Source: Octopus vulgaris
Taxonomy: Eukaryota
NCBI GenBank assembly: GCA_951406725.2
Contig: OX597828.1
Span: 12,586,001-12,650,000, forward strand
Direction of reading: 5' to 3'
Length of the DNA: 64,000 nucleotides
Positions 44,691-47,130 of this stretch are shown here, one piece after another. Each line of letters starts with the position of its first letter. Position 1 is the stretch's first letter. Both the position numbers and the translations under genes were made by a program. Below the pieces are notes generated by a model. It was not told the origin of the DNA. It was given only the letters and a program-made list of their open reading frames with translations, and searched no databases.

Positions 44691-45078
44691 TTTCGTTTTG
44701 TATTTATATGTCTGTATATGTATGTGGTCTGCACACATCTATCTGTGTATATGTTGATGTATATATGTATAGTTTAGTATGAGTATGTACTGTTGGGAAA
44801 TATTTTAATGCATTTTAATATTTTAATTTCAATTTCTATGTATTAATTATATTTTCTTTATTAATGACAATATGTATTTTAACCAAAGATTCGATGTAAG
44901 GTTTTTCCTCGACTTTTATAATTTTATATATTATTTATATTTTAGATTGAGCTCATTTTTGTTTATCGCTCGAATATGACCGTTATTTGAAAGGACCAAT
45001 CAAACAAGTCCTTTTTTACGGTGTAACGTTTATACTAGTCTTGATAGAATTGGCATATCGGTTCTATTTTAATAAAAA

Positions 45079-45116
45079 CTGTCCGACGAACGGGAACGTG
45101 AAACTCCGAGTAACAG
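45079..45116 (+). ncRNA. type I hammerhead ribozyme with one core substitution (CCGACGA for CUGANGA)
   Basis: CTGT-CCGACGA-ACG(GGAA)CGT-GAAA-CTCCGAG-TA-ACAG: helices I and II pair, helix III is palindromic. Confidence 0.65.
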
Positions 45117-45143
45117 GTTTTGTTGAATTTCTGCTGCTTTTAA

Positions 45144-45147
<4 letters not shown>

Positions 45148-45222
<75 letters not shown>

Positions 45223-45244
45223 TGTATATATATATGTATATATA

Positions 45245-45317
<73 letters not shown>

Positions 45318-45353
45318 GTATATATATCTATATATATATATATATATGTATAT

Positions 45354-45402
<49 letters not shown>
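45148..45402. repeat. (TA)n microsatellite
   Basis: direct inspection. Confidence 0.95.
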
Positions 45403-45404
<2 letters not shown>

Positions 45405-45503
45405 ATATAATTTTTGAGCGATCTTCAGATTTTTCTGTATGCTAGAGCACTGATTTTAAATTGATATTAATCAAATAAATATTCAATTTTTCACCTTATT
45501 ACT

Positions 45504-45552
<49 letters not shown>

Positions 45553-45661
45553 TATATATATATACATTTTCTCAGAAAATCGTCAAAAATTATATATATA
45601 TATATATATATGTTCCCCCTTATTATTTTACATATATATATACACATATATATATATATAC

Positions 45662-46430
45662 TTTACAAGATAAGGGCAGAAGAAAAATTCTAATGCCAGA
45701 TACGCCGAAACAAAAGAAATTGTCGATAACCATTAAATTTATGCGTCTCGAAATAAACCGATAGAAATCTCTAAAAAATTCGTTATTACCGTATTGGTCC
45801 ATGTTTTTTTTTTTTTTTTCGGCGTATCTGGTATTAGAATTTTTCTTCTGCCCTTATCTTGTAAATTATGTATAAATTTTACCTTTAAAGGCATTTTTTG
45901 ATATGCTGGCCATTGATAAACATTTTTTCCCGAAAAAAATTTTATCCTATATTTAATTATAAATACATTAGTGTTTCACTTCCGGATTCTATCACTCTGT
46001 GAAAGTTTCTAGTTCGAATCACACGTGTCTTGAGGTGCGCCGAAGATTTTTCTATTTGGATATATTTGGAGTACTTAAGTCTGCTCGGGACTTGGCGCTT
46101 GCTTCTTCCGTGGGTATGTATAAGTATTTCATTTATATCTCGCGTATGTACCGCTGAAGAGGGGAAAATTTCTTGTGAATTAACCCCGAAATTGGACCAA
46201 TACGGTAATAACGAATTTTTTAGAGATTTCTATCGGTTTATTTCGAGACGCATAAAATTAATGGTTATCGACATTTTTTTTTGTTTCGGCGTATCTGGCA
46301 TTAGAATTTTTCTTCTGCCCTTATCTTGTAAATTATGTATAAATTTTACCTTTAAAGGCATTTTATGATATGCTGGCCCTTCATAAAAAAATTTTTCCCG
46401 AAAAAGTGTTATCCTCTATCAATTATATAT
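45662..46430 (+). mobile_element. non-coding hammerhead retroelement (Penelope pLTR-like/retrozyme-like), 467-nt unit with inverted 5' segment
   Basis: 45662-45801 is the reverse complement of 46193-46332; 45804-45960 is directly repeated at ~46275-46427 (offset 467); flanked by (TA)n; contains an HHR. Confidence 0.8.
46149..46207 (+). ncRNA. type I hammerhead ribozyme, intact core
   Basis: TACCG-CTGAAGA-GGGG..CCCC-GAAA-TTGGACCAA-TA-CGGTA; predicted cleavage after A46202. Confidence 0.85.
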
Positions 46431-46440
46431 ATATATATAT

Positions 46441-46640
46441 TCTTTTACTTGTTTCAGTCATTTGACTGCAACCATGCTGGAGCACCGCCTTCGCACAAAT
46501 CGACCCAATGACATATTCTTTGTAAGCCTAGTACTTATTCTATCGGTCTATTTTGCCGAACCGCTAGGTTCCAAGGATGTAAGCATACCAACATCAGTTG
46601 TCAAGCGATGGTGGGGGGGACAAACACAGACACACACATA
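46441..46640 (-). mobile_element. SINE family A 3' half
   Basis: A tail reverse complement. Confidence 0.85.
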
Positions 46641-46662
46641 TATATATGCATGTATATATATT

Positions 46663-46714
<52 letters not shown>

Positions 46715-46844
46715 GTGAATTATTTTTCTCGTAAATTGTACCGAGATTATTTTACACTGGTGGCTGCTGGGATTTCGGCGCGAAACGAATCAGTTGCAGC
46801 ACAAACTTCAAGACGATGGGTTGGGAATCTCTAACCATGGTAAC

Positions 46845-46896
46845 GCGTGCTGAAGAAGCTAAGGCTTATTTCGCCAATGCAGAAACCGGTCCACGT
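46845..46896 (+). ncRNA. type I hammerhead ribozyme in a non-coding insert (46711-47060)
   Basis: GCGTG-CTGAAGA-..GGC..GCC..-GAAA-CCGG-TC-CACGT; GUC triplet, palindromic ACCGGT helix III; helix II base imperfect. Confidence 0.72.
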
Positions 46897-47130
46897 GAGT
46901 CCAAATACTTAAATGTATGTTAGTAGATTGTCTTAACCAAATTTTGCTTTCGTTTGATTTCTGTAGTTTTCATCAGTGTATTTTTGGCGATTTAATAAGA
47001 GTTTTGACTGTTATTTCAAGCAGGTAGACATACTTATTATGTCCTTTGATTAATTTTAATATATATATATATACATACATACATATATGTGTATGTGTGT
47101 ATGTGTGTGTGTATGTGTGTGTGTGTGTGT

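Follow-up and report, generated by a model that had tools for sequence, protein, structure and literature searches.

Hammerhead-bearing Penelope-type insertions in a TA microsatellite of Octopus vulgaris: ends of coding elements beside short non-coding units

The closest described relatives of the elements considered here are the Penelope-like elements (PLEs) and the retrozymes linked to them, and our subject is a TA microsatellite of Octopus vulgaris that carries several hammerhead ribozyme motifs, within a stretch of 64,000 nucleotides (nt) called "the window" below (assembly GCA_951406725.2, contig OX597828.1, positions 12,586,001 to 12,650,000 of the forward strand; our coordinates count from its first letter). 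The Hydra clade of PLEs, as laid out in section 11 of Craig et al. (2021, PMC8557442), is recognized by RWK and DKT motifs and a CxCX5C linker within one open reading frame (ORF) whose GIY-YIG endonuclease lacks CCHH, besides having a hammerhead in its pseudo-long terminal repeat (pLTR) and inserting into (TA)n, and the supplement of that paper already lists Hydra-1_Obim of Octopus bimaculoides with both a hammerhead and the (TA)n preference. More recently, the lizard Poseidon element PAc of Anolis was reported by Frangieh et al. (2024, PMC11167929) to encode a protein that, once purified, cuts both strands of AT-rich DNA in vitro and starts reverse transcription (RT) at two internal sites that define the tail, with uncut RNA as the main substrate and the hammerhead cleaved only in the presence of the protein. 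In parallel, non-LTR retrozymes were described (PMC7229834; bioRxiv 10.64898/2026.07.22.740005) as non-coding, low-GC, PLE-linked units with one type I hammerhead each, found as partial tandems and dimers, and their PLE origin has been published in a survey of 31 vertebrates, 3 insects and 1 coral (bioRxiv 10.64898/2026.07.22.740005). The octopus repeat annotation counts 31 recently active Penelope-like families (PMC13282606), in a main text that does not use the words "hammerhead", "ribozyme" or "Hydra", and the main text of PMC7229834 does not use "octopus" or "cephalopod". The retrozyme class, its PLE origin and the octopus Hydra elements are, then, already published.

We consider it quite probable that this microsatellite has received unrelated Penelope-type insertions of two kinds, F1 (and likely F4) being ends of coding PLEs, and F2, F3 and F5 being retrozymes that Hydra-type RT-endonucleases probably copy in trans. 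The estimated density, the PLE insertion signature on non-coding units and a rule by which the two arms of an insertion use one each of two 3' ends are new as far as our literature search goes; it covered few subscription papers and returned no report of cephalopod retrozymes or of this one-of-each rule.

Five hammerhead motifs between TA arrays

Descriptor scans found five type I hammerhead motifs in the window, all on the plus strand, and the elements carrying them are named by the positions of their cores, F1 (45083), F2 (46154), F3 (46850), F4 (54683) and F5 (56927); self-cleavage of all five is a prediction from sequence. Three hammerheads within about 2 kb separated by (TA)n, with two further loci at 54680 and 56923, had been described in an earlier note made from the letters alone, and both observations stand, the TA arrays included. 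The motifs combine the core CUGANGA / GAAA / UH with helices I to III and an open helix I, with a U4C exchange in the first hammerhead, HHR1 (45079..45116, predicted cut after 45112), which has the core CCGACGA at 45083-45089, a helix II of 3 bp, the helix III ACTC-C-GAGT and a GUA site. HHR2 (46149..46207, predicted cut after 46202), with a helix I of 5 bp, a helix II of 4 bp and the helix III ATTGG-A-CCAAT, also fits the strict descriptor, and the scan found HHR5 (56923-56990, predicted cut after 56986) alongside these two. HHR3 (46844..46897, predicted cut after 46891) is seen only when an A.A opening of its bipartite helix II is allowed, having a helix I of 6 bp and the helix III ACCGGT, and HHR4 (54680-54772) requires a wider descriptor, with a helix II arm of 66 nt and a helix I of 3 bp. 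As in the minimal PLE hammerheads of Cervera and de la Pena (2014, PMC4209133), helix III is palindromic, helix I is short, many unrelated families share one genome, and F3 has the extra nucleotide between 9 and 10.1; in contrast, helix III has 3-5 bp here, and such a helix is absent in the minimal forms described there.

Could these motifs be chance matches in AT-rich, repeat-rich DNA? The Rfam hammerhead covariance models, a search that the earlier note had put forward as a check, gave no match at E<=10 to any of the three main motifs, and a Rfam scan of the whole window gave no hammerhead among the 150 listed of 220 matches, nearly all of them microsatellite-driven miRNA models; therefore, support for the hammerheads comes from the descriptors, conservation and covariation. 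The descriptors, for their part, were custom-made for this analysis and relaxed to admit the motifs of F3 and F4, and this, together with the silence of Rfam, counts against us. Against the chance explanation, however, the strict descriptor found 3 motifs in the window where local dinucleotide shuffles gave a mean of 0.02, and the relaxed-helix-II descriptor found 4 where they gave 0.07, neither count being reached in any of 100 shuffles, so that the motif frequency lies far above that of shuffled sequence, an equality with which the earlier note had held to be fatal. In addition, HHR1 shares its helices I and III with the coral element Hydra-2_Amil, and a genome sample agrees: forty 10-kb stretches spread evenly at round coordinates over 27 contigs (400 kb in total) contained 26 intact motifs, compared with 0-2 in each of 20 shuffles. 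Chance is refuted by these results, and we give it practically no weight.

This sample corresponds to about 65 motifs/Mb (Poisson range about 42-95), and because the window has a similar density (5 motifs in 64 kb, or 78/Mb), the cluster is ordinary: the motifs do stand together, as the earlier note said, but at the genome-average density. For the searched assembly of 2.8 Gb and 227 contigs, we estimate about 1.8e5 motifs (roughly 1.2-2.7e5), or one per 15 kb, from just 26 motifs and a custom descriptor, a basis that tells against leaning on the figure. Published counts, obtained with other descriptors, are 126,247 hammerhead motifs in axolotl and about 5000 in mussel (PMC7229834), and 2,000-9,000 for schistosome, coelacanth and Xenopus (PMC4209133), as against some 1e5 estimated here. 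The 26 sampled motifs fall into 15 sequence types, sorted by eye, and 16 of them have (TA)4+ within 250 nt downstream, compared with 23% of random positions; several hammerhead families stand inside 3.5 kb at L021, L083 and other loci. A frequent minimal family among them (4 of 26) has the helix II AGAGC..GCTC and the helix III AACGTT, often with U4C, and was seen at L249, L260, L267, L269, L006, L018, L073 and L120.

Each of the five motifs belongs to its own dispersed family flanked by (TA)n. A first look gave 2056 (F1), 2386 (F2), 1381 (F3), 279 (F4) and 1784 (F5) candidate places, which are not copy numbers, and the best 40 per family were scored, so that the family samples below are the best-scoring copies and not random ones, which should make the reader cautious about our main interpretation.

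Two 3' ends, used one per arm

In each family, two 3' ends recur at fixed positions downstream of the predicted cut, both of them fused to (TA)n. Counted from the predicted cut, they lie at about +130-141 and +218-229 in F2, +168 and +305 in F3, and +148 and +240 in F5, where the alignments overrun the ends by a few bases of TA-like sequence, and at +37 and +108 in H1 and +37 and +104 in H2, the two coding families described below. After removal of 10 duplicates from 60 loci, F2 is represented by 50 non-redundant insertions with 94 arms; the two sites together account for the ends of 83 of these arms, 76 of which adjoin (TA)n. There are 37 head-to-head pairs of F2 arms, 30 of them joining a short and a long arm, none joining two short or two long ones, and 7 being unassignable because of an eroded end. 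The same one-of-each pairing was read by eye in all assignable pairs of F3 (7/7) and F5 (7/7), was found in 10 of 11 pairs of H1 and both pairs of H2, and is obeyed by the window's own F2 and F4. The pairing suggests that both sites serve in the same integration event, each on one target strand. The likeness to PAc is close, with two internal RT sites downstream of the hammerhead defining the tail, AT-rich targets, and both strands cut and extended (PMC11167929).

The remaining anatomy is also that of PLEs, given that 5' truncation, partial tandems, an inverted 5' arm and an optional tail were observed in all families; a tail often at one end only has been noted for PLEs before. Arms longer than one unit make up 38 of the 94 in F2, the longest reaching 1137 nt. 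The 5' ends of F2 show no accumulation at the predicted cut, with one arm of 94 at -2 and the next at +4. Five of the 94 arms (at L001, L006, L014, L018 and L023), where about two would be expected, begin 9-15 nt upstream of the cut, in helix III or GAAA, possibly an RT stall in the ribozyme core, although the excess is statistically weak. Terminal and internal tail copies do not differ systematically, and the folding z-scores of the tail hairpin range from +0.63 to -4.31, so a shared hairpin is not universal. Identity of F2 units is 96.8% (n=16) and 96.6% (n=15) within insertions versus 95.3% (n=378) between loci, a gap too small to prove a single template. The idea of the earlier note that diverse non-coding elements repeatedly land in (TA)n thus keeps its families and its TA targets, but loses the non-coding status for F1 and probably for F4.

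Ends of coding elements and short non-coding units

F1 (44677..45147, plus strand) is the 5'-truncated 3' untranslated region (UTR) end of a coding Hydra-clade PLE, stopping at the proximal 3' end, which adjoins (TA)n, with the clade assigned by motifs and by comparing published proteins by eye. Its relatives in L132 and L040 (92-94% identity) both extend upstream to the end of a GIY-YIG ORF about 1.2 kb before the hammerhead; among the 30 best F1 copies, the shared sequence reaches far upstream, and this ORF end falls within the fetched flank in 6. That ORF end has 88% protein identity to the young family H1, and F1 itself is 72% identical to the 3' end in L202, an intact young subfamily. The HHR1 core pattern is intact in 24 of 30 copies, with CCGACGA in 23, while loop 3 and helix II vary between subfamilies. 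The H1 unit measures 3364 nt from hammerhead to hammerhead between (TA)n, and its single 727-amino-acid (aa) frame, open at this length around 23 of 150 listed matches, places RT before a C-terminal GIY-YIG without CCHH and has the RWK, DKT and CxCX5C motifs; the hammerhead in the pLTR and the (TA)n insertion complete the Hydra diagnosis. The intact ORF (L202:3244-5424) had no Pfam match at E<=0.1, so such elements evade domain-based annotation. Compared with published Hydra elements (PMC8557442), which are generally <3 kb with a tail of 30-40 nt, H1 is longer, its 3' UTR alone having about 1.0-1.2 kb, and its tail has about 70 nt; furthermore, the window's F1 subfamily has a U4C core, and there are at least three Hydra-type families in this genome.

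Two of these were met as side observations. H2 (L208-L237) is a very young Hydra-type family with a 2590-nt unit, tandem arrays spaced 2590 nt, open frames of 710-720 aa, a U4C hammerhead core and a mean difference of 0.12% among its 30 best copies. H3 (L308-L316) has ORFs of about 980-1090 aa, in which a long stretch rich in Asn is inserted ahead of the endonuclease linker, a 3' UTR of about 1.2-1.5 kb, and hammerheads with a long helix II.

F4 consists of an inverted arm (54370..54665, minus strand), which ends at the distal (tail) 3' end and has a decayed hammerhead core, and a direct arm with HHR4 (54668..54851, plus strand), which ends at the proximal one. Colinearity among its copies extends at least 1.4 kb upstream, and ends of Hydra-type endonucleases lie 1.35-1.5 kb upstream on the same strand in 2 of 11 extended loci (L382, E 5e-5; L384, E 4e-11), which makes it likely that F4 is what truncation left of an old, long PLE. 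A short non-coding unit is therefore lacking in F1, which runs into an ORF, and in F4, given its upstream extension, so the earlier description of all the inserts as non-coding units applies to F2, F3 and F5, but not to F1 and probably not to F4.

In contrast, F2, F3 and F5 are non-coding permuted units of 458-479 nt, that is, non-LTR retrozymes. The window's F2 (45807..46423, plus strand) is a 467-nt unit in a 1.3x partial tandem, seen as a direct repeat of period 467, and stops at the distal (tail) 3' end, where (TA)n follows directly, and its inverted arm (45661..45801, minus strand) is 5'-truncated inside the helix III palindrome and ends at the proximal (short) 3' end, the two forming an inverted repeat of 152 nt at 96%. 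F3 (46712..47060, plus strand) is a 5'-truncated copy of a permuted unit of about 470-480 nt that ends at the proximal 3' end, and F5 (56657..57092, plus strand) is a copy of a permuted unit of about 460 nt. The best 40 F2 places in the genome have 92-96% identity, and HHR2 is intact in 27 of 30 copies. Natural head-to-tail dimers, in which the tail end passes directly into the unit's own 5' part, were found with spacings of 461-467 nt at 9 of 30 F2 loci (two of these being one insertion), of 479 nt at 1 of 30 F3 loci, and of 458 and 461 nt at 2 of 20 F5 loci. Six natural monomers of the three families have 30-34% GC and a longest Met-ORF of 31-58 aa, so each family shows a short, low-GC, non-coding unit in tandem with one type I hammerhead per unit.

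A hidden coding parent was looked for. In 30 F2 loci picked by their 3' part alone, the upstream sequence was F2 itself or flank only, and four PLE proteins searched against 130 F2-F5 loci matched 4 of them, always 3' of the unit and not upstream. Older relatives retain the short unit, both the 71%-identical F2 relative in L317 and an F3 subfamily of about 75% identity, in which the PLE proteins matched 0 of 30 loci and no ORF was seen. The F3-like neighbour in L027 was rejected as a coding parent, since it proved to be a member of this older subfamily. A tRNA-derived promoter for F2 was rejected as well: there is a B-box-like word, but T-runs follow it, and ARAGORN, once its threshold is lowered, reports tRNAs everywhere. 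No RNA record was listed as carrying F2, and contigs of four runs guessed to be RNA covered 28, 15, 27 and 26 of 30 bins, a view in which ends, strand and circles are not visible and which weighs neither way.

The hammerhead helices of these units vary in a paired manner, an expectation of the earlier note that was borne out in F3, among copies and between subfamilies, and in F2 against its relative. Pairing in L317 is preserved despite changes in helices I, II and III; 96.2% of the cells are paired in 30 F3 copies, with two-sided changes in 3 of 14 pairs; and F3 subfamilies about 75% alike show a compensatory swap from GC/GC to GG/CC. Weighing on the other side, the two-sided count in F3 is by itself not significant (47 of 500 shuffles were as high), in a shuffle control that leaves out the relatedness of the copies. 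Helices kept by compensatory changes in units without an ORF argue that the ribozyme fold is under selection in F2 and F3 lineages that encode nothing.

As for published retrozymes (PMC7229834; bioRxiv 10.64898/2026.07.22.740005), the invertebrate ones are given as 170-400 nt and the vertebrate families as 51-972 nt. Instead of long arrays, F2, F3 and F5 mostly form dispersed insertions of 1-2 units with inverted arms, and a comparison with four coding families gave no PLE to which they are linked by sequence. Any target site duplication is hidden by the (TA)n targets, circles and cleavage are predicted, and the units are not consistently highly self-paired.

The earlier note had proposed the endonuclease relic at 35226..35455 (minus strand) as a trace of the machinery that moves the short units, a role that is less likely given that it belongs to a different PLE family, which has its own minimal hammerhead in its 3' UTR and no sequence similarity to F2, F3, F4 or F5, nor any link to F1. 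This C-terminal GIY-YIG fragment had no Pfam match, has at least 150 related places in the genome, and appears by its motifs to be of Penelope/Poseidon type. Just after the ORF of this family stands a tRNA-like segment with A- and B-box-like words, followed by (AAT)n and then the minimal hammerhead (35120-35225 of the window, minus strand, and L137-L165), common to most of the 30 copies viewed; ARAGORN at its default threshold called a tRNA in 0 of 5 such loci. Besides these, an insert of about 100 nt between TA arrays at 45405-45505, with about 81% match to three other loci, is possibly the tail of another TA-targeting family, and very abundant pieces of a tRNA-type short interspersed element lie beside TA arrays at 46440-46640, with 239 matches among the loci compared, and at 47320-47700.

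Mobilisation by Penelope-type proteins and its alternatives

The two-site signature in F2, F3 and F5 is the best evidence that PLE proteins move them, by analogy with PAc. Most likely, the endonuclease would nick both (TA)n strands, and RT would be initiated internally at two fixed positions, 130-305 nt downstream of where the hammerhead cuts, each used once, one per target strand; RT would then pass through the hammerhead and drop off at variable points, leaving partial tandems and inverted arms. Because the cDNA crosses the cut site, the template should be an uncut multimer or a ligated circle, and the hammerhead, dimerising by way of its palindromic helix III, is predicted to cleave RNA multimers, an activity that would likely yield unit-length or circular RNA. 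With its preference for (TA)n targets, the Hydra clade is the more likely helper. Several facts pull the other way. F2, F3 and F5 share no sequence with the 3' ends of H1, H2, H3 or the Poseidon type, in a genome that holds many more families; one inverted pair of H1 joins two long arms; and the RT start site of PAc was the same for both strands, whereas here the sites are used one per arm in nearly all inverted insertions, including those of non-coding units. The hammerhead was dispensable for insertion of the lizard element in vitro (PMC11167929), of 9 retrozyme dimers from Xenopus just 1 cleaved in vitro, and our monomers, which are decayed copies, are 55-63% paired in circular folds that are not consistently strong (z of -1.25, -2.68 and -0.09 in F2, -0.59 in F3, -5.58 and -2.5 in F5).

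An alternative that we find unlikely, though it is the most serious one, is that PLE machinery mobilises the short units from read-through multimers left uncut, with the hammerhead in a passenger or side role and no circular intermediates. It agrees with the dominance of uncut RNA in the lizard system, with the lack of an accumulation of F2 5' truncations at the cut, with the weak folding of F2 and F3, and with U4C cores, reported to lower activity (PMC3088659), in F1 and the very young H2. It does not easily explain why compensatory changes hold all three helices across subfamilies 25-30% apart, nor how arms of up to 2.4 units persist under constant 5' truncation, for which some length-restoring step is needed, and retrozymes of mussel and axolotl do accumulate as circles (PMC7229834). 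Much less probable is that all five motifs are pLTR ends left by 5' truncation of autonomous PLEs, a separate non-autonomous lineage being absent. This holds for F1 and probably for F4, and most genomic PLE hammerheads are described as lone motifs of truncated elements (PMC4209133), but for F2, F3 and F5 it is contradicted by the tail-to-5' junctions of natural dimers, by the absent upstream ORF in copies chosen by their 3' part, and by the persistence of the short unit in older subfamilies. We regard as more improbable still a satellite-like spread at the DNA level, through duplication or unequal crossover, a route that has been suggested for tandem arrays of retrozymes; local amplification from PLE termini has been discussed for vertebrate retrozymes, but these copies are dispersed across most large contigs with unrelated flanks, and their anatomy contradicts it, with 3' ends that are fixed, 5' ends that vary, inverted arms, and a length of at most about 2.4 units.

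Returning to PLE-driven copying of retrozymes, a wider version of it is tentative and, in our judgement, rather doubtful: that the genome holds about 1e5 hammerheads in dozens of families at about 15x the axolotl density, that every PLE integration is twin-primed by a protein dimer using each start site once per strand, and that long-lived retrozymes encoding no protein use circular RNA templates.

In summary, the density suggests that hammerheads are a routine component of the repeat DNA of this genome, unrecorded by repeat annotation. Mobilisation of retrozymes by PLEs has so far been backed by co-occurrence and by pLTR phylogeny in vertebrates, and the PLE insertion signature on non-coding units provides direct genomic evidence in an invertebrate, while the strict one-of-each pairing constrains the mechanism of PLE integration. 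Moreover, the genome that holds these units also holds young Hydra families whose ORFs are intact and whose copies are nearly identical, so that helper and passenger could be paired in vitro.

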